From the NCBI GenBank assembly GCA_049999805.1, contig JBNGIO010005464.1, forward strand, positions 1-38,214: DNA of 38,214 nt, in the 5' to 3' direction. Of this stretch, positions 12,464 to 34,100 are shown one piece after another. This DNA is from Folioceros fuciformis (taxonomy: Eukaryota). The position numbers were made by a program, and so were the translations under genes. The notes below the pieces were generated by a model, which saw only the letters and a list, made by a program, of their open reading frames with translations, was not told the DNA's origin and ran no database searches. Positions within the stretch are counted from its first letter, which is position 1; every line of letters starts with the position of its first letter.

Positions 12464-16142
<3,679 letters not shown>

Positions 16143-16675
16143 CTCGTCACGTCAATGTCACTCGCCGGAGAAGCTCCGAACACAGGGAACGAATACAGAA
16201 CTTCTCTACGAACAGGGAGGTAGAGTGTGTACAGTGGAGATGTCATGCCAGATACTATTACGTGCGAACACGCCAACGACCTAAAAGATTAATGCTGTGC
16301 TTGAACCTTGGAAGTGGTAGACAACTTATAAATTTTATATGGCGGGTCCGGCAGAAAACTTTTTGNNNNNNNNNNNNNNNNNNNNNNNNNNNNNNNNNNN
16401 NNNNNNNNNNNNNNNNNNNNNNNNNNNNNNNNNNNNNNNNNNNNNNNNNNNNNNNNNNNNNNNNNTCATAAAAAATTTTAAATAGGTCATTCACACGGTT
16501 GGTTGAAATATCATCCGAATCTACATTTAAAACTTCAGTGGCACTAACCAAATTCTTTCAACACTATTCTACTAGCTTAGGGTTTTTGATTCACCCTTCA
16601 TGGTGGAAGGAGGTGCAGGGTGCAACATCCAGTTTAGGGTTCTTTTCCTTAGTGTTCCGTCCATTACTCTCTAGC

Positions 16676-16843
16676 TCCCTCCCTACCTACCTACTTGCGC
16701 CTCCTCCCTCCCTTCCTGCGCCTCCTCCCTATCTACCTACCTGCACCTCCTCCCTATCTACCTACTTGCGCCTCCTCCCTATCTACCTACCTGCGCCTCC
16801 TCCCTCCCTACCTACCTACGCCTCCTCCCTCCCTACCTACCTA
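16676..16843. repeat. Pyrimidine-rich minisatellite (ctacctacctgcgcctcctccct-like units) running into a 400-N gap
   Basis: Directly visible repeated units; gap 16844-17243. Confidence 0.8.
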
Positions 16844-19800
16844 NNNNNNNNNNNNNNNNNNNNNNNNNNNNNNNNNNNNNNNNNNNNNNNNNNNNNNNNN
16901 NNNNNNNNNNNNNNNNNNNNNNNNNNNNNNNNNNNNNNNNNNNNNNNNNNNNNNNNNNNNNNNNNNNNNNNNNNNNNNNNNNNNNNNNNNNNNNNNNNNN
17001 NNNNNNNNNNNNNNNNNNNNNNNNNNNNNNNNNNNNNNNNNNNNNNNNNNNNNNNNNNNNNNNNNNNNNNNNNNNNNNNNNNNNNNNNNNNNNNNNNNNN
17101 NNNNNNNNNNNNNNNNNNNNNNNNNNNNNNNNNNNNNNNNNNNNNNNNNNNNNNNNNNNNNNNNNNNNNNNNNNNNNNNNNNNNNNNNNNNNNNNNNNNN
17201 NNNNNNNNNNNNNNNNNNNNNNNNNNNNNNNNNNNNNNNNNNNATCCTATAGACCGGGCCCGAGGCCATCGCAACTTGCGATGGCCCCAACCTCGCTGGC
17301 CTCGCGCTTGGTCTGTTGCGCTCATTCTCCTTCATACAGCCCTGTGTAACGGCCCTCTGGCTATCGCAATCACCAAAGGTCTCAAGCAATCAAGCTCTAG
17401 CCCTCCCCTCCCTCCTACAGCATTTACATCTGAGGCAAGGTCAAGGCATCAAGCCTAGAGCTCGTTTGCCGACTAATCATGAAATAGATCCACTAAGTTC
17501 AATTGCCCATTTTGCTCACCACAGCTTATGGTTTCACACCATTTGCAATGCAAGCGGTTTACACCATTCACAGTACAAGCGGTAGTTCACATTATTCCCC
17601 TCAGTGCGTCTCACTCATGTCTCACAGTGTTCTGCGTAGCGCATCTCACTCATAACTCATACATGCTACCATCCTATCCCTAACAACCTACACACACTTC
17701 TACCAATGCAACTCAACGAGCCCACTTGCAGCCTACACTCACTTTGAATTTTTGTGGTTATCGTGAATCATTTAGTGATCCTTTGTTGTAGCTAGCAGAA
17801 CTTAAGCTCGATAGCTGAGGCCCCTTCCTGGATGTAATGTGCTAGATGCACACGGGTTGAGGACCATTGAAGTAGGTATCTTACTTGATTCACAGGGCTG
17901 AGGGCCATTCTGGTGTGTTAGAAGAATGCATCACTTGATCATGAGGAATTTGTAGGCAGTGGTAGAAAAGAAACCAAGCAAAGCTTAGTTTCTTAAACAG
18001 CTTTCTAATAAGGAGCACGGCTTCGCTTGGTTTCTGAAGTAGCAATTAGGGTTTTCTTGTTCATTGTGTCTGAAAGACGTGGCCATGGCTTAGGCTCGAT
18101 CCAAAACGTAGTTACAATTGAGGTAGTGATCGCTGCAATGTATAATGGCGAAGCCTGGCGGCTCTGCGGCCTTATGTGTGGATTGAAGGAACCCCGAAAG
18201 AACCCTAAATGAGCAAACCCTAACCCATGGAATGAATGGTGAATAATGGATGAATGTAAAATGAGAATTGTTTCTTAGAAAAAACTCTAAAGAGATGTGA
18301 GTGTCTGATGTGGGAAAGTCCCTTTTGGGACGATGTCCAAATTGGACAATCGCAAAAACCATCTTGGGGGATATTCCCTTAGATACCCGAGGTGAAAACC
18401 ATAAAATAGTGCACCTTCCCCTCTATCCGATTTGGTATGCCATAACATCACATGTTTGGTTTCTTAACAAGAAAGACACCCATTTTACAACCTTCAATGT
18501 AGTGTGTGGAGAAGGGGGCTTCAACATTGTGAGTTTCTCTTAGAATGGCCAACTACTCACTTTCAAGAAGATACCCTCTCTTTTCCTCCTTTCTATCCAA
18601 GGGGCGGCCTATCTTTGTACTTCCCACTAAGAAGTAGTACAAGCATGTAGTGCAAACTATCTACATGAACTCTACTTTACCCTAATCCTCTCATGCCATT
18701 ATTCCCTCTTAATTAGGGACGTGAGTAGTCTCCCAGCTTTTGGCTAGGCCTTGTACCTAGAAGGTTCAAATAACACTAGTTTCTTTTTCTACAAGGATGA
18801 GATTCTGTTTGGCACGGTCTAAGTATTTAGTTTTTTCCCTCCTAGCCTATTTGTTTTTGTAAACATACAAATGATTATGCAAAATGTTCAACAAGTTCAT
18901 AAGCACCAAGCGCGCTAGTTGTTGTTATCACTAAAAACAAAAAGGTAGCCCTAATTTACTCATAACCCTGAGCCATATAGCCAATGCAAGAAATAATTAA
19001 TGCCCAGTCGTCCTTGTATTAGATTCAAGCGCCCATGAGGACCTTGCTACTGACCTCGTTTTTGTCATGAGAGGTGTTGTTTTCAGGCTTCACTTTGGCT
19101 GCTGACCACTCTCCTTCTCCAATCACTCCACCTACTCATCCCACTACTTGCACCAGCCCTAGGGGGTTCTTGACACCTCATTGTCTAAGTGTGGGACTGA
19201 CCAACTATCCCATAGGAATTTTTGGGTATACTAGCGCTTACTAATTTTACTGACCTATTGATCAGATAGGTTGTTTGCAAGTCTACCATCTTACATCCTC
19301 AAATTCCAATAAGAGGTTAGCTCTTGCAACTCTCCACTAATGTTATGCTTGGGAGTTGAGGTAGTAAGAAAGGTAGACCATTCATCCATCCGTTCCAGAG
19401 AAAGAGAGGAAAATCCGTCACTTCATGGGAACGAAACCCAGTGTCTCAATGATAGTGGGATAAGTGTGGTCACTAGAGGTAGCCCAAGGCCTCTGTCATG
19501 GCATGGTGAGGGCCACGTGTTTTGCATGTGAGTACCCCAGCCAAGACGGATTAAAATAGCGAGTCATACAATCAACGGGACCAAATTTTGTGGTAGGTGG
19601 AGTTAGTGTAAGGCGGTGCTTCGTTTATAAGGGTGTGTAGAGGCCTAGCCTAGATGGATTTGGCTAATGTTCACTAATGATAGTGGCCAAACGGGAATCC
19701 CAAAGAATGTGCAGCGGGGTGACTGAATCGATCAAAAGCGCAAATGAAGTAACAGAGGTTGTTCACATCAGCCAAATTTGCTCCTAGCAGAAAGGCTACA

Positions 19801-19849
19801 CAACGAGTGCGGAGCGGGTGTCTGGAAGAGTACAAAGCTTGTGGGCAAA

Positions 19850-22800
19850 CAAGCATAGATAAGCAAGAGAGGAACTGATGGTGAAGACTTCGCAGTCATT
19901 CGATGGAAGCTGGGACATTCAAGAGTTGGCAATCCTATTGGAAATCGAACGAGAGGAATTGTGGAAAAGGTTGTGAATTGAATTCATTGACCTGTTGATG
20001 TGGTTGGCAGATTGGACGCAAGGAGGGAGCAACTTGGACTTCGACCACATGCCATATATCGTGTCCCATCGAGGAAGGGGATGGCGCAATGGTGATGCTT
20101 TGATCCGGTTGGATGAACAAAAGCACGCCTGCCCAAGGGAGCTAGGAGCTGGTGACTGCCCATCCTTTGGTACACAAGAGTAGGGGACAATTTGAGTGGA
20201 GTTGCAGCCCTATGAGGGCACTAGACTTCGAGGAGCCATGCCAAATGGAGCACGAGATAGTTCCTAGCAAGAATGATGTCTTCACTGGGCACCATGGGAG
20301 CATGTCTCTTGTTGACTTCAAAGAGAAATTTAGGTGATCACTAGACGAGACGATGCCTAGGTCCAAATCAGAGTTCACTCCAGAGATGGCTCTACTGGAA
20401 AATAAGCACCTTCCCGATAGGAGAAGTGCTCACGTGCTATTGAGACTCTAAAGAGAAAATCCTGGCGGACACATGTTTGGTGGCTAAAGGCAGGCAAAGC
20501 AAAGGGTTGATCAAAGGAGATGATGACGAGACCGGGTCTTTTGAGTTGGCTGATGTGATGACCAGTTTGGTGGATGAAATGCTTAGGAGGTTTGCTAAAA
20601 TGTTTCCCGTCTCGTTCATTGAGAAAAATACAGGAGCTTGCCAAGTTCTCAATCATGCCCAATAAGCCGCTGCGGTTTGCATACTTGAGACTACAGCAGC
20701 TGGTTAAGGACACGAGGGTCAAGACCACGAGAGAGGCGGCATAAATTTATGTTGCAACATTGTTAAGATGACATCGGAGAGTGATCCCCAACTTTCTACA
20801 CATGCTTCAAGGAGTGGGTTACGAGCTTGAACATGCATATGAGATGGTGGAGCAATCATGAAAGGTGTTGTTGTGACCTATGCGTACTGGGAGGAGCATC
20901 ATATAGGATGGGCGCACACTAACATGGCTGGGCTGCCTAAAACAGGAAGCAGGGGAGTGTACCAAGAGCAACACCCTAGTGGAGGGTAGCGGAAACAAAC
21001 TCCACCAAGGAGAGAGTAGCTAGTAGTGTAGCAATGGTGAAGGTGGCGACTAAGTGCTTGAGATGCAAAAGGGCACACAAGACGGGTGATTGCAAGTATC
21101 GGAATGGGGGGCCGAAGGAGAAGAAAACATGCAGGGCATGTAGAAAAACGGGACATTGAAGTTGCATGCTAGCAAGCTCACCCAGAACGTAGACCAAAAG
21201 GGAATGGTGCAAACCTATGGGGGGCTACACACGCAAAGCACTATTGAGTGAGGTCCATAAACTTCAGGAGCAGTTGGCTATGAGTGTGAGCATGAATGCA
21301 CCCAACAAAATGATTGAGGAAGAATCTGATGATAAAGGGAATATGCATGCCTGGTGGCCGACAAAGTGTCTGAGCAATGGCATGTGGATGAAGACTTTGG
21401 AAAGGGAGTGAGAAGAAAATTAGAGGAACCTTGCCCAACAGCCAGCATGTCGAGATCCTTCAAACTAGTGGAGGACATTGAGTTAGGCTCACCCGTGAAG
21501 AGCAGGGTAGGGAAAGATGAAAAGGCATTGGTCGAGATGATGAACACACTGATAATGAGCCTACAAGACCTTGGGGTCAAGACCCATTCACTCAAATGGG
21601 TGGTGCAAAGGTGGAAAGTGAGGGAAGATGACACCACATCTATGAGTGGGCTAACCAGTTTGTGTGGAGAGCATCTTAAGCTCGAGAACAGGGGCAAGGG
21701 CAGAATAGCCATGGTGAAGAATGAAGATCGACATGTGATGTTCAACAGCTTTGCACCAAAGCGGGTGTTGGTGGATACAGGTGCCGATCCAGTCCTGTTG
21801 GGAGCTAGGTACAGACAGTGCTGAAGCTATATGGTGATCGATTGAAGCCAAGTGACGTCAAGATAGCGACATCCGCAAGAACCAAGCAATAGGTTTTGGG
21901 GATAATAAAGGATCCGATTGACATAGAACTCAAACCAGGAACATCAAAGGCTTGCATCGTGAAGGTGCAATGTCTAGTGTTGGATGCAGAGAATTATGAT
22001 GTCTTGCTTGGGGCAGATCCCATGCATAAACCAGCAATGGGGGTCGATCCCCTGCACACAGAGGCATTTTATCGACCGGGTTGGCAAACCGGTGATTTCA
22101 GTCATGTAGTAAGGACTCCTCTGGATATGAAAAGGCATGGAGGACAATCAGGAAGCATGCTCACACTATGGACAAATGTAACTCAAATTGTGCACAAATG
22201 TGTGTTGTGCGAAGAAACACAAGAACTAATGAATGACAGGTCAGTCGATATAAATGAAAATGCATTTGGTATGGTCATACGAAGCAGTGTGGGACTTGAT
22301 TAGGCATTGGAGACAGAACGACAAAGACTACAAAGGCAAAGGCCTTGGGTGCCTTCGAGCACGTGCCCAGAGAGCAGCTTACCAAGAGGAATGACGATTG
22401 TCGAGAGTGAGTTCCGCATCGACAATTAAATAATATCCTGGAAACCGAGCAGCCAAGGAATTCACATCTTAGAGTTGTGTTCAGGAATCAGTAGTGGGTT
22501 GGAGGCAGTGTTGAGATGCAGGATATGAATGCGAAAATATACGTGTGTAGAGATAGATCAAAGAACCAGTGAAGTAGAAAAGGCAAGGATTTTGTGGATG
22601 CAAAAGCTTTTCCCTGAACAACTGAACATGGAGGCCATGAGGGGATGTGAGAGTAGGCTGAATGTGGATATCAAGATGGTGGGGAAGCGACAACTGGAAG
22701 CAATGGGTTGCACCGTGGACATGGTCATAGTGGATGGGAGTGCCAAACGTTCTCCAAGGCCGGATGAGGCCTGGGAGACGGGTTGTTGCAAGCCTATGGT

Positions 22801-23254
22801 TCTCATACTCGAGGAGGTTCAGCGATAGAATCCAAGATGCTGGTATGTATTGGAGAACGTTTGTGGAGCATTCGACAAGAGAAGGCATGTAAGGGCCGAA
22901 TATGAATGAGAGAGACAGTGGCTAGGGGATGAGTTCATCATGGATGTTGTCCAAGCAAGCTCGTATGCACATCAATTATGCAGTTTTTTGACAAATGCTG
23001 TAGATGTTTCTGTGTTGCAAGAGCATCGAAGCACTACAGTGCCTCCGGTATAATATGTTGATCACATACTAGAAGAGGGCCGGAAGGTAAAACCAGTCAA
23101 AAGAGATGACAGGCTACCAGATTTCCCAGTCAACTTGGTGGGTGGCGCGAGAAGAGCATGGCCCACACTTGTTAGCAAATCATGGTCGTATGCTTTCAAG
23201 AATGGAGGAGCTGGTATGCTCTTGGATAGAAAGGGGAAGAAGTGGGCAAACCAA
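19850..23254 (+). mobile_element. Ty3/gypsy-type retrotransposon A (gag with two CCHC knuckles, protease, DNMT), degenerate and truncated by the element B LTR
   Basis: Knuckles CLRCKRAHKTGDC and CRACRKTGH at ~21055-21170; protease RVLVDTGADPVLLG (~21760-21805) then LKPGT...NYDVLLG...YRPGW; DNMT motifs follow. The 5' boundary is a guess and no LTR was identified. Confidence 0.8.
22439..23254 (+). pseudogene. Retrotransposon-encoded C5 cytosine DNA methyltransferase domain (degenerate, C-terminally truncated)
   Basis: Motif I ILELCSGISSGLEAVL (22466-22513); motif II-like YTCVEID; motif IV VDMVI/GWECQTFSKAG (22732-22764, local frameshift); motif VI YVLENV (ENV 22853-22861); motif VIII DVVQASSYAHQLCSFLTN (22943-22996); then PVN...WPTLVS...AF. 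Same frame as the protease ORF 21896-22303. Confidence 0.85.
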
Positions 23255-23782
23255 TGTCATGTGAGGCACACAGCAGACAGTCAAGCTGGTGATAAGTGTG
23301 GCAACCTCCAACCAGGAGCATCAGTTGAATAACACAGCACGTACCAAGGAAAGTGGTAAGAAGGTTAGCATCACGCAAGGTGCTGAGCACTGGGATAATG
23401 TGGAACCCCCATCCACACTCTCGGTGTGAGCCCACGGGTTTCAGCAAGGCAGCTGTAAGCATGCCCTAATCCACCTTCTCTAGTTCTTGGTGTTTACTAA
23501 TTACTGTTTAGCGTTTGCTAATTGCCAACATTCAAATGGCATTATCCTAAACTAATCCTTATTTAAAGGATAATTGTTTCATGCTGCTTACTCAACCTTA
23601 AGCTCACCTTTGGTATCGTGACAGCTGTCGTGCGAGGCACAGAGCAGATGGTCTAGCTAGTGATAAGTGTGGCAACCTCTAGCCAGGAGAATCAGCTGAA
23701 TAACACAGCACATACCAAAGAAAGTGGTAAGAAGGTTAGCATCATGCAAGGTGCTGAGCACTGGGAAAATGTGGAGGCCCCA
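23255..23782 (-). repeat. 3' LTR region of element B, containing two 157-bp direct repeats (23255-23411 and 23626-23782)
   Basis: Both copies start TGTC and end CCCCA on +; the right copy abuts the polypurine tract. Confidence 0.75.
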
Positions 23783-23798
23783 TCCCCCCCCCCCCCCC
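23783..23798 (-). promoter_or_regulatory. Polypurine tract of element B
   Basis: Run of 15 G plus A on the minus strand immediately before TG, about 60 nt after the pol stop. Confidence 0.75.
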
Positions 23799-23877
23799 AG
23801 CTAATGAGAATGGCTGGCAAAAAGAAAGGGCTCGTCCACGTCGGGTACCCATGCCCTCAGCTAGCTGTAAGAACAAC

Positions 23878-24012
23878 ACACTGGGGGCAATACCATAACT
23901 GTTCAGGTACCTCAGTCAGCGGCGGATCCAAGCAAAACAAATGGAATCTGCCATTGCATCCATCACAGAGCAGCATGAGCCCTAAATCATCTACCCTACG
24001 ACACACCTGGCA
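23878..24012 (-). other. PHD finger (C4HC3) at the integrase C-terminus
   Basis: CQVCRRVDDLGLMLLCDGCNGRFHLFCLDPPLTEVPEQLWYCPQC; all eight zinc ligands present. Confidence 0.92.
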
Positions 24013-26009
24013 AGGGTAATCCTCCGAAGGAACCCAATTGGCTGTGACAATGGTGGGGTCCAAGTTGGGTAGGTGGCAGGGGGCACAATTCTTGGTGTGA
24101 TATGTAATAGTCCTGCCATCTGCCCCCTGTAGCAGCAGCACGCTGTTAGGTCTCACTTCCCTGATCCGCAGCATATGGCGACTAGTGTTGGTGTCTAGTG
24201 TATCACCAGTCTATCGCTGCAAATACACAAAGTCCCCAAATTGGAACTTCTTGAGTTTAAGCCTGAAACTTCCGCTCCTAGTATAGGCATACCTAAGAGT
24301 GTCCCTGTGCTGTGCGATGTGCAAATTTGCCATAGCTATGGGCATGACCTGCCTAAACATCGTAGCCCTCTCCCCAATGACTTTGGCCCATACAGCCGGA
24401 CTATCTAAGTCCACCACCTGCTGCAGTTGCTTGGCGATGGAGCTAGGTGGCATTGGCTCACGGCCAAAAAGTAAGTAATACGGTGAGAAGTGTGCCAAAG
24501 AGGCATGCTTACTCATCCGGTATCCCATTGTGATGTAGGGCAAGGCGAGATCCCACTCGGTCTAAGGCATCTGCAGACAGAGCTTCCTCAAGCCCTTCTT
24601 GAGTGTCTGGACTATTTGCTCTGCAAGACCATTAGCCTAGGGATGGTCTCTACTTGTCCTACGATGATCTATTAACGCTGCGTCCAATAGATCTTGGAAT
24701 TCACCCTGAATTCTGACCCCTGGTCAATTAAACATTCTGCACAGCTATCGAAATGGCTGAGTACATTCTGCAAGAATGCTTGAGAGGTGCTCCTAGACAT
24801 CTTGTCAGGCAGCACGACAGCCTCCACCCACTTGGAGAAATGCTCCATCATGACAAGCACGTACACATTCCCACGTGTAGTGCGTTGCAGCTCCCCAATC
24901 AGGTCAATCAGGTCACATGACCATCTGAAAAAGAGGCCCATGATAGGCAAAGGATGTAGCTCCGGGTGCTGGATGGTGAAGGAAGTCTTCACCCTGTCAC
25001 ATGGCTCGCAGCAGGCAACCCAGTCACGCACCTGACCATGCATCCCATGCCAATAAAACTAAGGGGATAGCAGGCTGTAAGTGTGTTTGACGCCAAAATG
25101 ACCCATATCATCGTGCACCTTACGAATTAGTGCAGCTCTGTCAGCTGGTGGCGGCACCAAGCGTTCAACTCCATGTGCCAGCTTCCTAATAACATAACCA
25201 TCCTGCCAATAATATGTGGCAACACGATGCTTGACCTGTTCAGCTATGGTTGGTGGCAACGTTGCATCCAGCTGTCCTATTTGTGGATACTGTAGTGTGT
25301 AAGGATCCTCCCAAATGTCCTTAGCCAGTCGGGTGGGTACAGCTATGCTGCCACTATCGACACACACCACGGCCACCAGAGCAGCGACCTTAAATGGTTC
25401 ATAAGGCTCATAATCCTGCCTTGCCTCGGTGATGTCCTGATAGCTGCTGTCTGGATTCTTGAAGAGAGTGTCTGCATTCTGATGCTTCAGACCTAGTCTG
25501 TGAACCACCTCGAAATCATAATCCTGAAGAATCATGGCCCATTGAGCTAGCTTGCCGCTGAGCTTTGTGTTGGCTATGAGCCACTTGAGGAACTGGTGGT
25601 CTGTCACCAGCGTGAATGCCTGTCCATAGAGATAAGGTTGGAAGTGGCAAACTGCCCAAACAGCGGCGAGGCGTTCACCTTCATAACTACTGTAATTGGC
25701 CTTCACCTTGTTGTTGCTACGGGACGTATAGGCTATCACTCTCTCATTCCCTTCTTCATCATGCTGAGCCAAAACTGCCCTAAGGCCCAAGCTGCTCCAC
25801 TCTATGTGTAGCACAAATGGCTGCTTGAAATCAGGTCTAGCCATCATAGGTGCAGAAGTCAACTTGGATTTCAGGGTATCAAACGCCTCCTCCATCACCT
25901 CAATCCAAGTCCATACCACGTCCTTTCTGAGCAGGTCATTGAGAGGCTTGGCAATACGGCTGAAAGTCTGGATATATATCCTATAATAATTGCAAAGGCC
26001 AAGGAATGC

Positions 26010-26190
26010 TGCGGAGCTCCTGTAAGCGATGAGCAGCTATCTGCCGTGCTTCCCCGCTGCTGTCATAGTATACCTAACGCCTGATAGGGAGGCCTGCCTT
26101 AAGCAAAGCCTCTAGGCTTGTACAAATGCCGCCAAACAGCTCCACGAGAAAAAGGCCGGTGGCTGGGATAGGCCAATCAATCACCTGAGA
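26010..26190 (-). pseudogene. N-terminal fragment of a C5 DNA methyltransferase domain in element B
   Basis: IDWPIPATGLFLVELFGGICTSLEALLKAGLPIRR*VYYDSSGEARQIAAHRLQELR (VELFGG at 26128-26145); in frame with the protease ORF 26512-27279. Confidence 0.8.
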
Positions 26191-28276
26191 CTTGACAACA
26201 TGCTCTTGCATGGGATCCTTGAGTCCTCGCTGCAACAGAGCTTGCACCTACTGGACATGCTTGGAATCATCCTGCAGCACTCCCTCAACCTGTGTGGGAT
26301 GGTCAGCGGCCTTGATCAGATCTATCAATCTGCATGTGGCTGTGGTGTTGTTGGAGTAGTTGTCACAATGCTCCTCCTCTTGCTCTCACTCTAGGTGGTC
26401 CTCATCCTGCAAATGGTTGTTGGGCAAGGGTGTTCCCTTACTGACCAGGACTGCTATACAGGCTTGTTGCTCTACAAGTGTAGCTGTGTCAGCCTCTGAC
26501 ATGTCATGCAACTAAAGGGGTAAGTGTGCCACCCTTCTCCTTCCTTGCTTCCAATCTGGACAGTAATACGCCTGCTCTGTCCAGTTGTCCACACTTAAAC
26601 CTGGTGGAAACAAAAATTCTTGCCCTAACAGCACGTCATAGTTTGTGGTTGTTGTCACTAGGCATGGAAGACTCTGCGTCATGGCATCTGGAGTGCCTGG
26701 CTTGAGTGTGATATCCACAGGCTTGACAGTCGCTCCGGCGACTGGCTCAATGGCTCCTGACGCTGTCCTTATGTTCCAAGGAGAGCTCTTAAGAGTTGAA
26801 CCATCAAGGTTGAGCCTGGCAGCTAATGTCTTGCCAATGATCACTAGTTTAGCACCAATGTCGAGCAATACAACCCTTGTGGCATACCCATTCACCGTAA
26901 TATGCCCCGCATCATTGTCAACTAGTGCATTGCCGACTTTGACTACTAGGCGGTTGGTGGGTTGGATCCTAGGAGAGCTAATGGGTTGAGGAGGCTGCCT
27001 TCCAGCTGCTGCAACTTCAAAAATGCTTCCAGCTACTGTCTCCTTGGCGCAAGGTGAGATGCTACCAGGTACCACCCACCCATTTGGAGCTAGTGGCCAA
27101 CATGACCCTCCTGAAGACAATATAGTTGCTTGCGCTGGTTGCAATTCCTTGGGCAGATGCTCGTGTCCTAGCCCCATGTCTTGCAAAGAAAATAGAGGAA
27201 TGCCAGTCAGTTTCTCAAATAATTGTTCCACATTGAAGGCCCTGGGCATCAAGTAGACTGGCCCACTGGCTGACACCAATGGTTGCGGCGGAGGCCTGTC
27301 TACTGTCTATGGCCCTCCTGCCAATGTGGAATGCTCTTGCCCTCAAACTGGGATTGCACTTCTTGGTGACAATGGTGCAAAAGATTGGGGCATGATCGCC
27401 CTCACTCCTTGTTGCCCGAGTGACTGGCCCTGCTGTTGTCTCCAACACTGGTGGGTATAAATGTTGCCCTACCCACGTCTGTGGCGACTCAGTAGTTGTC
27501 ATCTCAGCCTCCATCCAGTTGGCGACACACACTTGATGTGGTGAGCCGTAATCCTCCTCCTTGTCTCTGACCAGTTCAACAACAGTGGTTGGTTTGGGTG
27601 AGGTTGCGCCACTACTAAGACTGGCTGTAATCGCGCCCAATTGTGAAGATAACGTTGCAACAATGGCTTCTAGGGTAGATACCTTCTCTGCATTGGATGC
27701 AGCCTTAGCTTTGGCCTTGTCCCTTTGTTGTCGGCTGCGTGAGACCCCAACACTAATACTAGCTTCTGTGGTAGTTGTACCTCCAGCATTGACTGCTGTA
27801 GTCCTTGTCCCACTGCTTGCATTTTTCTGAGATCTTCTCTTTGCATGCTTCTGAAAACATATTGTGACCACATGTCCATTCTTGTGACAATGTGTACAGC
27901 ACAAGCCTTCCGGTGGGCATTTGCAAGCTGGGCTCAAATGCTCAGAACTACCACAGTAGTTGCACAAAGAAGCAACTATAGCTGCGGCTGCTCCAGCCTT
28001 GACAGGCTTGGCTTGCTGTGACTTGGCCCATGAACCTGTTGCAGTAGACCCCTTTGTGGAGAACATAGACTGGTAATGAGTAAATGCCTTGGAGTGTTGT
28101 GAAGCATATGCAGAGAAAGCGATCTCCTTGTGTTCATCTTCTTCATGTACTTACTCCAAGGTATACCTATCACCATATTTATCCACCAACGCTGTGATGA
28201 GCTGAAAGTGAAAGAGTGGGTCTTCTTCCAAGGTTGTTAGGAATTTCTCCGCTGCTTCCTAGTTCGTTAGCATTCC

Positions 28277-29495
28277 TGTGAAGGATTGCTACAGGAGCTA
28301 CATGGTGAAGGAGGAGAGGAGAAAGAGAGGTCACACTCTCACATTCAGAGTCTCAATATGCAAGGGAGCTCAAGGGGGTATTTATACCCTCTAGAAGAGC
28401 TCCCTAGGAAGCTTCACAAGAAGTGCACAAGAAGCTGCGCAAAAAGTTTCTTATAGAATAGCTTAAGCTAATCTAAACTAATGGTACTTAACTAGACACT
28501 AATCTTAGACTGCACATTAGTCTAAGCACATTGGGCTTTAATAACCCTACAACCTCCCACTTAAAGGCCAATTTACCTTCATACGAGAGTGGTCTACCTC
28601 ATGCCCATGAGTGTTCGAGCTCGTGCGAATTGCTCTGTAGAGAGCCCCTTGGTAAGAACATCTGCAGGGTTCTGACTAGTGTGAACTTTAACAAGCCGTA
28701 CCCTCTTGTCTTCCAACACCTCTCAAATGAAGTGATACTTCACTTCCACATGTTTGGTCTTCGCATGAAACACTGGATTCTTCACCAATTGAATAGCACG
28801 CTCGCTATCACAATGCAACACTGGCAGCTCAACCTTGATCCCCAAATCTTCCACTAAACGAGCAAGCCACAAAGCTTCCTTGCAAGCCTCAGTCACTGCA
28901 ACATACTCGGCCTTTGTGGTAGATAGCATTATGCACGATTGCAAACGAGATAGCCCTGAGACTGCCCCTCTAATGCACATCAAGACATAACTTGATGTGG
29001 ACCTCCTTTTGTCCATATCTCGTGCGTAATCAGCATCCGTGTATCCCACTACAGATGCATCTTCACTACCAAAACATAAGCACAAAGCTTTCGTACCATT
29101 CAAGTACCTCATAACTCCTTTTACTGCCTCCCAATGCTTCCTGCCAGGGTTTGACATAAACCTGCTAACCACTCCCACTGCAAAGGCAATGTCAGGACGT
29201 GTAGCAATCATTGCATACATCAAACTCCCTACAGCTAATGAATATGGAACCTTCTCCATTTCAACTTTGTCCTCTGCAGAACTTGGGCAATCCTTGTTTC
29301 ACATATGGAGGCAACGGGGTACTCAATACCTTCCCCTTCTCCATATTGAAACATTGAAGCACCTTATTAATGTACTAAGTCTAAAACAAGTAAAGCAAAC
29401 GCTTTTGTCTGTCTTGACAAATACGCATGCCAAGAATATGCCAAGAATATGTCAAGAATATGCCAAGAATATGTCAAGAATATGCCAAGAATATG
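28277..29495 (-). mobile_element. Ty1/copia fragment (RT C-terminus, RNase H, PPT, 3' LTR ~28277-28551) inserted into the gag of element B
   Basis: VPYSLAVGSLMYAMIATRPDIAFAVG, GYTDADYA, STTKAEY, TKHVEVKYHFI, NPADVLTK; PPT gtgggaggt before TG at 28551; TATAAATA in the LTR. Confidence 0.9.
29427..29492. repeat. 11-bp tandem repeat x6 (atgYcaagaat)
   Basis: Directly visible; derives from the copia RT HILGMRI codons. Confidence 0.9.
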
Positions 29496-29872
29496 GTGCA
29501 TAGGATGCTACATATATAGCCTTCAGGCCGGGGCAACCCTCGATAAGGTAAGCCTTAGTCTCAAGAGTGCAATATCTTGGCATATCCTGATATATCCTAA
29601 TAACACTTAGGTGGTAGATAACTACGAGTTCAATATGGGATAATCTACACTATCCTATACAGAAACAGGAGAAGCAATCTCACTTAGGAAAAATGATCAC
29701 ATGTATCAAACAAGCAAAACTCTTTTTGTCTTGTGTCATGTGCTATGGTGGTTAGGTATTTTGTAGTCATGTGTCTTTTCACATCTTGACTTTCTAACCC
29801 TAACTAAGCTTATTTAGCTTAACCTAGTTGTTGACTAGCTGACGCTAGACTATTCCTAGGCTTCACTTTGCA

Positions 29873-30371
29873 CCCCCACTTAGTCGTAGCCGTCAGTCTT
29901 TACTTGATCACTTCATCCTCTTTCTTCTCGGCTTCAATGTCAGACCTGTGTTTCAAGCCAAGTCCAACAACATGCAAGTTATGTTTTTCTTTGGTTAGAG
30001 CCTTGGTCAGTAAATCAGCTGTATTGTCATCTGTGGGGATGTCACTGAGACTGATTGTCTTGTTGGCTATCGCATTTCTTATGAAATGCTGCTTCACCTC
30101 CACATGTCTGGTTCGAGCATGTGAGATAGGATTCCTAGCTATCGCAATGGTGGACTGGTTGTCGCAATACATCGGCGTAGGATCCTGCTGCTGGTAACCT
30201 ATAGTCTCCAAGAAATTCCGTAGGTGCATGACTTCTTGGGCTGCAGCTGTAGCTGCTGCATACTCGGCCTCCGTGGACGATAATGCAACCACGGTCTGCT
30301 TCTTTGAGGACCAGCTGACGAGGCCCCCACACACCTTTATACAGTATGCTGAGATGGACCTGCGTGAATCC
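29873..30371 (-). mobile_element. Ty1/copia RNase H fragment with PPT
   Basis: [46 protein letters not shown]; aagtggggg PPT; ends at an N-gap. Confidence 0.9.
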
Positions 30372-30471
30372 NNNNNNNNNNNNNNNNNNNNNNNNNNNNN
30401 NNNNNNNNNNNNNNNNNNNNNNNNNNNNNNNNNNNNNNNNNNNNNNNNNNNNNNNNNNNNNNNNNNNNNNN

Positions 30472-31190
30472 CTATTCCTAGGCTTCACTTTGCATCCTAA
30501 GTGTTGCATGCTCTTAATAACAATTCAGTTAGAGCTTGATTTCTAACACTCCCCCTCAAGCTCAGACTATTTGTAACACTCCAAGTAGTTCACGAAAGTG
30601 TAAGAACTTATCTCTACTTAGTGACTTAGTAAATATATCTGCTACCTGGTCTTCGGTCTTCACGTGCCGAAGATCTATCTTCTCAGATAATACCACTTCC
30701 CTGATGAAATGATAATGTACTTCTATGTGCTTCGAACGAGCATGAAACACATGATTAGTAGCCAACCTCATGCTACTCATGTTGTCACAGTAGATTGTGA
30801 CCTTGTTGTTCACTATATTTCCAAGATCATGTAGCAACTTCTGCAACCAAGCTGCTTCACACGCTGCCATTGCAGCTCCTCGATACTCTGCTTCTGTGCT
30901 TGACAAAGCAACTGTCGGTTGTTTCTTGCTTTGCCAGCTGATCATACTCCTTCCCAAACTGAATGCATATCCACTGGTTGATCTTCTATCATACGCACAA
31001 CCAACCCAATCAGCATCTGTATATCCTGTCAGTTCAAGATGCTTCCTATGCTCATAAAGCAATCCAAACTCAGTAGTTCCTTTCACATATCTCATGATTC
31101 TTCTAACTGCATCTAAGTGCGGTTTCCTTGGGTTTTGCATGATTTGACTAATCAATCCTACTGCATAATTTAAGTTAGGACGTGTAATAG
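30472..31190 (-). mobile_element. Ty1/copia RT C-terminus/RNase H, PPT (30549-30560) and start of 3' LTR
   Basis: [45 protein letters not shown]; gagggggag followed by TGTTAG at 30548. Confidence 0.9.
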
Positions 31191-34100
31191 ACTTGGAATA
31201 GCGCACTCTCAGCCACGCCCAATCACCAACTTCATATTGTTCATGTTGTTGCTTCTTGTTGGCATGCGTTGACCTTTGATGGTTGATGGCTCTCATTCGC
31301 TGCATAGCCTCTGCTAGGGTTTTCCCCATCTCTTCGGTGAGTTCAATCACATATTGAGGGACTCCTTGCAGCACCACTTGACACCTCGTGAGTCCCTTGC
31401 TACCATTACTCATACATAACTATGCGTCGAGCCTCCATCAATGAGGAAGGACATTGACCAGTCACCAAGCCTGCCCTCCACGGTCATGGACTGGTGCTTC
31501 AAGTGCTCAAAAGCCCTTTCTTCTGCCTGCTTCGAATTCTGCAAGCTCTCGATGTCAAGTTGTTGATTGACGTTGTTCTGGCCCTGCAGCCTCTTCAACT
31601 CATCACTCAACTCAATCTGCACCCTTGTGCAAGCATTTATCTTAGCAACACCTTGCCTCACAGTGCATCCAGCGTGCTTGACACCCTTCAGCCATTTACC
31701 ATACATGGTGTTGTACGGACATGCCCTCGCCACATGTTCTGGCTTTGCACAGATGAAGCACAGGCCTTTTGCCATGAATTCTCTTTTTTCACCCTCACTT
31801 CGCTGCTTGAACTCAATGGGTTTCAATTCCTTTTGCTGGCTGATTTGTGCAACTGACCTTGCAGGTTTGCCTCTAGGCCTCCACGTAGGGGCAGCTTGGC
31901 ACCTTGCCCCTTGAGCATGGTATGGCTTCTGCTGATGGCTTGTGGCCCTTGCCATTGCTGGTTGCACTGCAGACAAACACAACGCAGCTGGAGCCTTCAC
32001 ACCAAAGTGTTCGATGTCCATGGCAGCTTGCATAGCTTCCTCCACTGTTTTGCAATGTCGTTGTTTGATCCCCAACTTGTACTCAGGTTTGATTGCATGA
32101 AAATACCTAGCCAATTTGGCTTCTTGCTCCAAGTCTGGCAGTTTCAACATGGCGTTCATGAACAGCAAGTGAAACTCCTCCAGCGAGCTTGTGTGTTTCA
32201 AACTGTACCAGGCTGACCAACATCGCTCTTTGTGGTCCTTAGGCAAAAAGGCTTGCAATAACTTTGCCTTCATCACCTCCCATGACATGATAGGTACTTT
32301 CTCCCCACGTTTGCTAGCCTCCTTTCGATTTTCCCGCCAAGCTCTAGCCAAATGGCTGGTGTAGTGTACAGCTAAATCAATCTTCTCCTTCTCTGACATG
32401 CTCACAGCTTCAAAGTACACTGAGAAGGCCTTGGTCCACTCTTGTAACTTTGTTGGAATCCTGTCAGTGCAACTCAGGGTTTCGAACTTGGCCCTCTTGC
32501 GGAGATCGTCGTTCTTCGTTGATTTTGGACCCTTGTCAAAAAGTAAGCCTTCTCGCATTGCCATGTCATGGTCATCATGTGCCTGAGCTCTCTCGTGATC
32601 GGCTATCTGTAGCCTGCTTGATATTTCAGCTATCTTGGGATCCTCCTGCTCCTCTGGAGTGAGCCCTTGAATTCTAAAGTGCTTGAGAGTTGCTGCTGAT
32701 GAAATTGCAAGGTGTGCAGGCTGGGCAGTCTTATTGGGAGTCACTGTTGAGGCCGGCTGCATGCTATTAGGGATAGGCTCGTCACCTTGATTTACTTGTG
32801 GTTCTCCTGGACGGTGGCTCTCATGACCTCTGGGTGGCCTCTGGAGTGCCTGAACAAGCATGTCTCTCAAGGCTTGCTCGCGCTCAGCATTCTATGTAAG
32901 CAACTCTGCCACCATCTTGTCATGTTGGGCCTTTTGCTCTTCTAACATGTGACGCAAAAATTTCTTGGGCCTCAGCTTCCATACGAGATCAAAACTCTAC
33001 CGCGCTTTGCTCTCCCCAAGGTGTCTGATTTGGAAGTGTCTCCTCGTGATAATCTCTGGCAAGAACCTCCTCCATCACGGGTGTCGGCTCTCGAGTTGGT
33101 TCAGGTTCACTTCTTCCCTTGTTGGCAGCTCTAGACTTCTCTCCCCGTGCTCTAGTCGTGGTAGTGACGCGTTCCTGCTCTGTTTACGTGCTCTTCTATT
33201 GTCGTCGAGGTTTCTTGGTGCCAATTGTGGCTGCTAGTCCTCCCCTCTTCCTGACTCCACCACCTCTAATTGCAGGATTTGGCTCTGAGTGTCCGGCTTC
33301 GACTATGGGCACGGTTCTTTTTCTCAATCGTGAAGAAATTCGACTAGCCTCCGTGGTAACGCAATCGACCAACCAATAGATCTATCTTGGTGCCCGCAAT
33401 GAACCAGGCCTTTGTTCCAGGGAAAGAAATTTCCCTCCCACAAGCACTAACTACCCAATGCTTCACCTTCCACCTTTGGACTCTTGGGACACTCCACTAA
33501 AGATGAACCAGCTTCCGAGCAGTGGTCAAGCTTTGCAGCACTCACGAGCTCCCTCGTCACTGACCTTTCCAAAGCTCTTTCCTCCTGATTGCTCGCACGA
33601 ATAGCAAATTCCTCCTTGACAAGATCCAAGACTTTCTGGCTTCTTGAATTTAATCTCTACATTCCATGAGAACTCGTATTGTGTCCACAATGCACACTGT
33701 CCCCCCAAACTTTGAATAGTCTGCAAAGGCTGTCAAGAACCACTCTACCCCGCCTACATATCTCGCATCACTGCCCCATCACTCATCTTTCATCCCGAAC
33801 CTCAAAATTCCAAGATGGCAAATCTCCACGAGCATACGTCCTCTCCCAAGTATGTTGCTCCCTCTTGTCCTAGCCACGAGCTCCACCGCGGATCTTGCAA
33901 TCTTGAAATTCTCATCCCTCCCCCAATCGCTTGGCTTTGATACCAAATGTAAAGAAAAGTCGGTCAGCCAACAAGCCCATGGCTCCCAAGGAAAACAAAC
34001 AAGCCCCCCACATCCGTCCTCATTTGGGTTCTTGACCCCAATTAGTTGACTTGCTTCTTGGGTTAGTTACTAACTCGAGTTCGTCTAACTTGAGTTACTT

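Follow-up and report, generated by a model that had tools for sequence, protein, structure and literature searches.

Results

Domains Retained by Element B

The minus strand of contig JBNGIO010005464.1 from Folioceros fuciformis carries, at about 23255-28279, a retrotransposon here called element B; the window is the whole stretch of DNA analysed, 38,214 nucleotides long. Element B is very probably a dead Ty3/gypsy relic with an internal deletion of about 2 kb, from a lineage that encodes a gag with a CCHC zinc knuckle, a protease (PR), a DNMT3-like C5-methyltransferase (DNMT), a reverse transcriptase (RT), an RNase H (RH), an integrase (INT) and a C-terminal PHD finger in one Gag-Pol frame. 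Parts of these domains are still present in the element, the deletion is delimited by its homology to other proteins, and relatives exist that have all the domains intact and their catalytic motifs conserved. Relatives are cited below by numbers of the form P0268. From about 28279 down to 23857 the minus strand reads gag (CCHC), PR, a linker, the start of DNMT, RT thumb and RH, INT and a complete PHD finger, in the following segments (ORF, open reading frame; LTR, long terminal repeat).

27215..28279, minus: gag region with CCHC-type zinc knuckle (blastx of 28279-27587 against P0272 residues 190-424, 26% identity, E 2.5e-16)
26512..27306, minus: aspartic protease ORF, in a phase that differs from gag (Pfam gag-asp_proteas E 4.8e-08, Asp_protease_2 E 2.7e-07)
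26179..26511, minus: PR-DNMT linker sharing the phase of the protease and interrupted by in-frame stops (26388 and 26250)
26008..26178, minus: DNMT3-like remnant, motif I (ELFGG) to motif II region only, with an in-frame stop at 26076 (profile of the relatives' DNMT domains, E 9.1e-14)
26009..26014, minus: deletion junction joining DNMT (about residue 90 of P0268) to RT thumb (about residue 762), with a frame change (blastx coordinates)
25059..26007, minus: RT thumb, RNase H and start of the integrase zinc-binding domain, an open frame closed by a stop at 25061
24211..25058, minus: integrase with H2C2 finger, rve core and C-terminal region (Pfam rve E 9e-10, Integrase_H2C2 E 1.5e-05)
23857..24210, minus: integrase C-terminal tail and complete C4HC3 PHD finger (Pfam PHD), with a natural stop at 23857-23859
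23255..23856, minus: probable 3' untranslated or LTR-derived flank, tentatively assigned to element B from a 160-nt repeat and a G-run

In the segment 25059..26007, Pfam recognized RT_RNaseH (E 7.2e-32), RT_RNaseH_2 (E 3e-30) and Integrase_H2C2 (E 9.8e-05). The succession of PR, RT thumb and RH, and INT is the Pol order of Ty3/gypsy elements, the RT fingers and palm having been deleted. Pfam found no chromodomain (PF00385) in the C-terminal ORFs of element B, where the PHD finger stands instead.

Just 3' of the PHD stop, a 160-nt segment occurs twice (23255-23414 and 23626-23785, 371 nt apart, 89% identity), and this pair was all that repeat searches of the whole window returned. A polypurine-like G-run lies at about 23777-23797 of the minus strand in the same flank. 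Contig depth, which here and below is a sum over contigs and not a copy number, was 258-400 over the flank (23255-23856) versus about 60-240 inside element B. In one contig, position 23474 is followed by 16 other letters and then by 23865. At 28279 a very high-copy repeat truncates the 5' end of the element: depth jumps there from about 100 to over 27,000, and 41 (run X1) and 40 (run X2) loose contig ends fall at this position.

The Methyltransferase Remnant

A preliminary description of this DNA had likened the string VELFGGICTSLEALLKAGLPIRR*VYYD (26062-26145, minus strand) to motif I/II of element A, a second decayed element of the window, and had placed it in frame with the protease of element B. 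Both statements hold. The string has the same phase as the protease ORF 26512-27306, and elements A and B are colinear from the C-terminal half of the protease to the ELxxGI motif (BLASTP E 2e-18, 28% identity over 232 columns). The spacing given there, about 110 codons and similar in the two elements, was approximately right: the string starts 124 codons past the stop at 26514 that closes the protease ORF and 166 codons past the protease motif YDVLLG, the counterpart distance in element A being 159 codons. Positions 26979-26014 of element B are in turn colinear with residues 695-1001 of P0272 (blastx, 33% identity over 333 columns, E 9.9e-45).

21336..23251, plus: element A, a protease followed by a decayed, C-terminally truncated DNMT3-like domain at 22433-23251 (profile of the relatives' DNMT domains, E 7.8e-63)

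The DNMT profile was built from the relatives' DNMT domains only, rows from the window being excluded, and was searched against the six frames of the window. Its two main matches were 22433-23251 in element A (profile positions 2-279 of 330) and 26008-26178 in element B (positions 3-59 of 330), both with E values far beyond chance. These results confirm that the ELFGG segment derives from a C5-methyltransferase domain, of which it preserves 57 residues, roughly the first sixth of a DNMT3-like domain.

Direct searches with the sequences of the window were less telling. Pfam returned no family at E≤0.1 for either of the window's own DNMT pieces, a phmmer search of the DNMT region of element A against PDB gave only malate dehydrogenase (E 1.5), and in a word-based search for longer proteins with the PR-DNMT region of element A none of 2103 candidates reached E≤0.001. 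The relatives were obtained by phmmer with a 310-residue region of element A, stops written as X, against 1.84 billion representative sequences, which yielded 335 matches at E≤0.001 and 123 at 1e-10; many of them sit in polyproteins of 1600-3400 residues. When 16 short matches were aligned with the two pieces from the window, the C5-methyltransferase motifs appeared in canonical order, and PF00145 was found in 14 of these 18 members.

Intact Relatives and the Ancestral Domain Order

The order proposed in the preliminary description for the ancestor of element B, gag-PR-DNMT-RT-RH-INT-PHD, is confirmed by relatives that have it intact: it is found in P0273, in P0242 and in the family of P0272 and P0268. 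In P0273 (2358 residues) precomputed Pfam annotation places PF13650, PF00145, PF00078, PF17917/17919, PF00665, PF17921 and PF00628 in one protein, and our probes located PR at 662-767, DNMT at 937-1274, RT at 1383-1614, RH at 1659-1796, INT at 1908-2114 and PHD at 2297-2345. P0242 (2710 residues) has a layout like that of P0273, its PF00145 match scoring 20.5 bits, just below the cut-off of 22.

The RNase H ORF of element B used as a query found 95 longer proteins at E≤1e-10. Its closest matches were the RT-RH-INT-PHD proteins of one cluster (P0001, 50% identity) and P0008 from Klebsormidium nitens, a 'putative retrotransposon protein' with RT-RH-INT-PHD and no DNMT in its gene model. P0268 (1471 residues), the one member of the P0001 cluster with a full DNMT, holds it together with RT, RH, INT and PHD in one ORF, with PF00145 (27.8 bits) and PHD (27.2 bits) both over the cut-off. 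P0272 consists of gag-PR-DNMT and is 84% identical to P0268 where the two overlap across DNMT. Among 291 proteins, the nearest family of the gag and PR-DNMT parts of element B is that of P0272, and the nearest family of its RH and INT-PHD parts is the P0001/P0268 cluster, with 68-70% identity over 281 columns in the integrase-to-PHD part. Because P0272 and P0268 overlap at 84% identity, both halves of element B point to one and the same family; the two halves thus do not derive from different families as far as nearest relatives tell. The methyltransferase motifs IV, VI and VIII that should follow the ELFGG segment are likewise kept in the relatives. Named sources of these relatives are Marchantia polymorpha (four proteins), Scenedesmus sp. 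PABB004 (annotated 'pol') and K. nitens.

Two Architectures and a DNMT3-Like Enzyme

A domain census was made on the first 245 fetched proteins, classified with phmmer probes. DNMT and PHD occurred together in 43 of them, and a further 18, some of them truncated, had DNMT and INT without a detectable PHD. Two architectures were recognized: PR-DNMT-RT-RH-INT(-PHD), as in elements A and B, and RT-RH-DNMT-INT-PHD. The latter is the commoner form, accounting for 77 of 106 DNMT domains and including P0004, P0098, P0122 and the 'pol' protein of Scenedesmus sp. PABB004, and only in this form are DNMT and the PHD-bearing integrase neighbours. A FastTree phylogeny of these 106 domains (29 PR-DNMT-RT and 77 RH-DNMT-INT) together with element A separated the two arrangements almost completely: 25 of the 29 PR-DNMT-RT domains and element A form one clade (support 95), and 75 of the 77 RH-DNMT-INT domains form another (support 94). 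Three label changes in all are needed on the tree, and the exceptions sit on long branches.

By the rank of its matches in PDB, the methyltransferase of the relatives appears DNMT3-like. The family profile matched DNMT3A (5e-24) and DNMT3B (6e-21), followed by DRM (2e-16), M.HhaI (4e-08) and DNMT2 (1e-05); DNMT3C was also among the best solved matches, ahead of DRM, and motifs I, IV-VIII and IX-X aligned in order with DNMT3A, DNMT3B and DNMT3C. The relatives conserve the catalytic Cys as well as the ENV and RxR motifs. The motif IV Cys is present in 29/29 PR-DNMT-RT and 65/77 RH-DNMT-INT domains, and motif VIII in 26/29 and 71/77, respectively.

The PHD Finger

The PHD finger that ends the integrase of element B is complete, as had been noted before: the match to PF00628 (E 1e-13) spans the full profile, positions 1-47 of 47, and the translation shows all eight zinc ligands of the C4HC3 pattern. 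Its closest solved structures (E 1.8e-16 to about 1e-9) are CHD4 PHD2, PHD1 of KDM5A/B/D and Lid, KMT2C/D, BAZ2A/B, PHF21A (BHC80), AIRE PHD1 and UHRF1, and none of the 60 solved-structure matches listed is a classical reader of trimethylated H3K4 (K4me3). PHD fingers of the CHD4, KDM5, BHC80, AIRE, UHRF1 and BAZ2 type bind the unmodified H3 tail (K4me0 or R2). Two residues before the zinc-binding His, element B has Arg and not the Trp that K4me3 readers with an aromatic cage have at this position. In sequence, the finger therefore resembles H3K4me0-type readers. The C4HC3 ligands are intact in 55 of 57 proteins with both DNMT and PHD. P0268 itself has two zinc-ligand substitutions in its finger; eight of the ten cluster mates examined keep C4HC3, and the finger of P0273 is intact.

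Deletion and Decay of Element B

Alignment to P0268 by blastx gives the extent of the loss.

26187-26014, minus: P0268 residues 33-90, 45% identity (E 6e-08), DNMT motif I-II
26009-24705, minus: P0268 residues 762-1190, 53% identity, RT thumb, RH and start of INT
24720-23878, minus: P0268 residues 1186-1466, 68% identity, INT core to PHD

Compared with P0268, element B lacks about 671 codons; the gap begins past DNMT motif II, takes in motifs IV-X and extends to the RT palm. In addition, ten premature in-frame stops are spread over the element, two in gag (28261 and 28153), one closing the protease ORF (26514), two in the linker (26388 and 26250), one in the DNMT remnant (26076), one closing the RT-RH frame (25061), two in the integrase (24639 and 24564) and one at 24213. 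The reading frame changes three times, between gag and PR, at the deletion junction and near 24705-24720, where the blastx frames -3 and -2 overlap within the integrase. Since motifs IV-X and most of RT are gone and ten stops interrupt what is left, this copy is dead, unable to read chromatin marks or to write them.

The CpG observed/expected ratio of element B is 0.35 and that of TpG+CpA is 1.45, as expected of old methylated repeats.

Weighing the Evidence and Its Alternatives

Several observations weigh against reading element B as a relic of one continuous DNMT- and PHD-bearing lineage with an active enzyme. Neither an LTR pair nor a target-site duplication was found for it when 18000-30000 and the whole window were searched for repeats, which in a truncated relic is no argument against Ty3/gypsy membership. 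PR-DNMT-RT relatives without PHD exist, namely P0249 (Pfam) and P0276 and P0288 (precomputed Pfam). Motif IV of the relatives mostly reads E-C-Q and not P-C-Q (18/29 PR-DNMT-RT and 42/77 RH-DNMT-INT domains), the Cys being kept. The Gypsy-DNMT3 domain of Klebsormidium gave no methylation in yeast, a result that its authors consider inconclusive in the accessible text of PMC5890265. The CpG depletion of element B is unspecific, similar values being found across the window (whole window 0.47, another gypsy gag 0.37), and is therefore no specific evidence for self-methylation. Finally, element B matches its nearest family unevenly, with 26-33% identity in gag and PR versus 53-70% in RH, INT and PHD, and no contig among those listed bridges the junction at 26009-26014.

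The last two points would suit a chimera, in which recombination, template switching or mis-assembly put the gag-PR-DNMT of one gypsy family next to the RH-INT-PHD of a second one at 26009-26014, so that DNMT and PHD never met in an ancestor of element B. The frame change coincides with this junction, and summed contig depth is lowest in the bin 26010-26183 (26.3 in X1 and 80.7 in X2). Uneven identity fits faster evolution of gag and PR, yet it is compatible with recombination. Against a chimera stand the common nearest family of both sides among the 291 proteins (P0272 and P0001/P0268, overlapping at 84% identity) and the presence of DNMT and PHD in a single ORF in P0273, P0242 and P0268. Proteins of the P0272 and P0268 types also occur on contigs of equal size (8407, 9242 and 13562), the size being the sole ground for placing them on the same contigs. 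We consider a chimera improbable. A non-autonomous subfamily is unlikely too, if somewhat easier to imagine: the deletion would then not be private to this copy, and gag-PR...RH-INT-PHD elements lacking DNMT and RT would have been copied in trans by full-length ones. The family does have many copies, about 1500-1600 contigs (two runs of one sample) matching the 5.2-kb stretch at at least 85% likeness, and all 30 bins are covered, the junction bin included. Contigs cannot count copies, however, none of those listed was shown to carry the junction, and the junction shifts the frame, which a propagating subfamily need not tolerate. As to the ELFGG segment being a chance likeness or a generic Rossmann-type motif for binding S-adenosylmethionine, the silence of Pfam on both pieces of the window and the mere 57 or so residues left could be cited for it. 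This idea is effectively refuted, and we give it almost no credence: the profile E value of 9.1e-14, the 333-column colinearity with PR-DNMT relatives and the colinearity with element A, whose own DNMT scores E 7.8e-63, all speak against it. A single DNMT- and PHD-encoding lineage, from which element B decayed by deletion, is thus the explanation that we prefer.

Discussion

A Reader and a Writer in One Polyprotein

Few retrotransposons carry an enzyme of the kind that normally silences them, and little is understood about those that do. Being a dead copy, the locus by itself adds nothing functional; it points to a sizeable family in public data whose polyproteins combine a DNMT3-like domain with a PHD finger, key residues being largely conserved. 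The preliminary description had seen in element B an element able both to read the state of the histone H3 tail and to write 5-methylcytosine, reminiscent of DNMT3. Its structural half stands: intact relatives hold both domains in one polyprotein. The functional half reaches too far: this copy is dead, PHD lies in this architecture more than 1000 residues from DNMT, and in the accessible text of PMC5890265 the yeast assay of the Klebsormidium domain showed no methylation, which its authors regard as inconclusive.

In the living family, the PHD finger would most likely tether the integrase to chromatin without H3K4 methylation, in analogy to the chromodomain of chromoviruses, and the DNMT between PR and RT may methylate the element's cDNA or its new insertion. 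Methylation of their own copies has been proposed for retrotransposon DNMTs by de Mendoza et al. (PMC5890265, accessible text). The polyprotein is probably cut by its own protease. More than 1000 residues, comprising RT, RH and INT, separate DNMT from PHD in P0273, and for this reason, together with the presence of that protease, reader and writer are most likely separate modules of the polyprotein and not a fused reader-enzyme in the manner of DNMT3. The position of the finger at the C-terminus of the integrase, with RT, RH and INT between it and the distant DNMT, is likewise why we regard it as a targeting module of the chromovirus kind.

If the PHD finger does guide insertion to H3K4-unmethylated chromatin and the DNMT methylates the new copy, these would be elements that place and mark themselves, an idea that can be tested in Marchantia or Klebsormidium. 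With its two positions, DNMT also provides a natural experiment in how a polyprotein accommodates domains captured from a host. A broader reading, tentative and in our estimate rather doubtful, would join all these observations: PHD-integrase gypsy elements with a DNMT3-like enzyme would be a large and old clade of the green lineage (chlorophytes, charophytes, liverworts), its two DNMT positions would correspond to two DNMT clades, and the pairing of an H3K4me0-type PHD with a DNMT3 domain would repeat the ADD-plus-catalytic logic of the host enzymes, the element picking unmarked chromatin and then methylating itself. A single mature protein could then even comprise writer, integrase and reader in the RH-DNMT-INT-PHD form.

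Relation to Known Elements

Elements of this kind have already been published as Gypsy-DNMT3, and element B is a dead member of them. A gypsy element with a Dnmt3-type domain was described in Klebsormidium nitens in 2018 (KnitGypsy-Dnmt3, de Mendoza et al.; PMC5890265, accessible text), and later texts, as far as they can be consulted, treat streptophyte Gypsy-DNMT3 (bioRxiv 10.64898/2026.05.21.726589; PMC12344493). According to the accessible text of PMC5890265, KnitGypsy-Dnmt3 resembles the family described here in having a Ty3/gypsy Pol with an intronless, non-rearranged Dnmt3-type domain, in keeping the catalytic residues and in belonging to the green lineage near land plants. It differs in that element B is dead and has lost most of its DNMT, and the named relatives found here reach Marchantia polymorpha and Scenedesmus. 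No DNMT sequence of KnitGypsy-Dnmt3 was identified among our matches, in which Klebsormidium is represented by name only by P0008. The main text of PMC5890265 never uses the word PHD; its Fig. 4c and supplements may show such a finger. Our full-text literature searches returned no description of DNMT and PHD together in one LTR element, with the same reservation about the figures and supplements of PMC5890265, and the searchable texts make no mention of the RH-DNMT-INT position. Three features of the family may be under-described: DNMT regularly goes together with an integrase that bears an H3K4me0-type PHD, it occupies either of two positions, and the elements reach into liverworts and chlorophytes.

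Each component has precedents elsewhere. Chromoviruses (Gao et al. 2008, as cited in the accessible part of PMC6673714) resemble element B in carrying a histone-tail reader at the integrase C-terminus, which presumably directs integration; the reader of element B is a PHD finger and not a chromodomain, and by similarity it would recognize unmodified H3K4 and not methylated H3K9. PHD fingers in retrotransposons are known and widespread (Kapitonov and Jurka 2003 for CR1-like elements; Perez-Alegre et al. 2005; both through PMC6673714), and the citing passage of PMC6673714 mentions no DNMT in the same element. The host enzymes DNMT3A and DNMT3B likewise combine a DNMT3-type catalytic domain with a PHD-type finger of the H3K4me0-reading kind in one gene product, whereas in the present family the finger stands behind the integrase and, in P0273, over 1000 residues C-terminal to the methyltransferase; no PWWP or ADD domain was found. 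SymbioDIRS-Dnmt3, SymbioLINE-Dnmt and the EpiLTRs, the last of which add a chromatin-targeting chromo domain, are also DNMT-carrying retrotransposons according to the available text of PMC5890265 and bioRxiv 10.64898/2026.05.21.726589, but they belong to other retrotransposon classes, hosts and DNMT clades; the DNMTs of EpiLTRs are placed as sister to DNMT4 in the consulted part of the latter.

Element A and the Surroundings of Element B

Element A is sister to P0268/P0271 in the DNMT tree, on a long branch with support 86. Its protease changes frame between 21824 and 21893. Motif IV of its DNMT is only weakly visible, in another frame (22729-22776, plus strand, E 0.003), and since it matches only there, local frame changes have occurred around this motif. 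The element carries stops and lacks the last 50 or so positions of the DNMT profile, the similarity ending at 23251, where the first 160-nt copy of the element B flank starts.

The window is eukaryotic, plant-like DNA with five runs of N (800 bases in all), in which numerous retrotransposon fragments lie beside one intron-containing DEAD-box helicase gene. The exons and introns of this RNA helicase, recognized by eye from AETGSGKT-type motifs and a helicase C-terminal region, span 13200-16150 on the minus strand, and it is the sole apparent host gene of the window. Tandem repeats with periods of 31, 45 and 25 nt occupy 107-261, 2123-2392 and 16675-16845, respectively, the last of them abutting N runs.

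Upstream of element B in its own orientation, the interval 28272-28600 has a summed contig depth of 27,000-46,000, compared with about 100 in element B, with a sharp edge at 28279. This very abundant repeat could possibly be the LTR of a Copia fragment at 28723-29298. Three Copia-type RT/RNase H fragments lie at 28723-31419 on the minus strand, followed at 31410-32891 on the same strand by a gag-protease ORF with a CCHC knuckle that belongs to another LTR element, so that 28723-32891 is packed with the remains of retrotransposons.

Of the six sequencing runs listed, two from a single sample contain a fraction of 0.47 of the words of the window, and none of the six is an RNA run with words of the window. 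Related contigs in runs X1-X3 differ from the window (23400-28600) mostly by transitions, in X1 A>G 72, C>T 77, G>A 69 and T>C 83, with 7-15 for each transversion.

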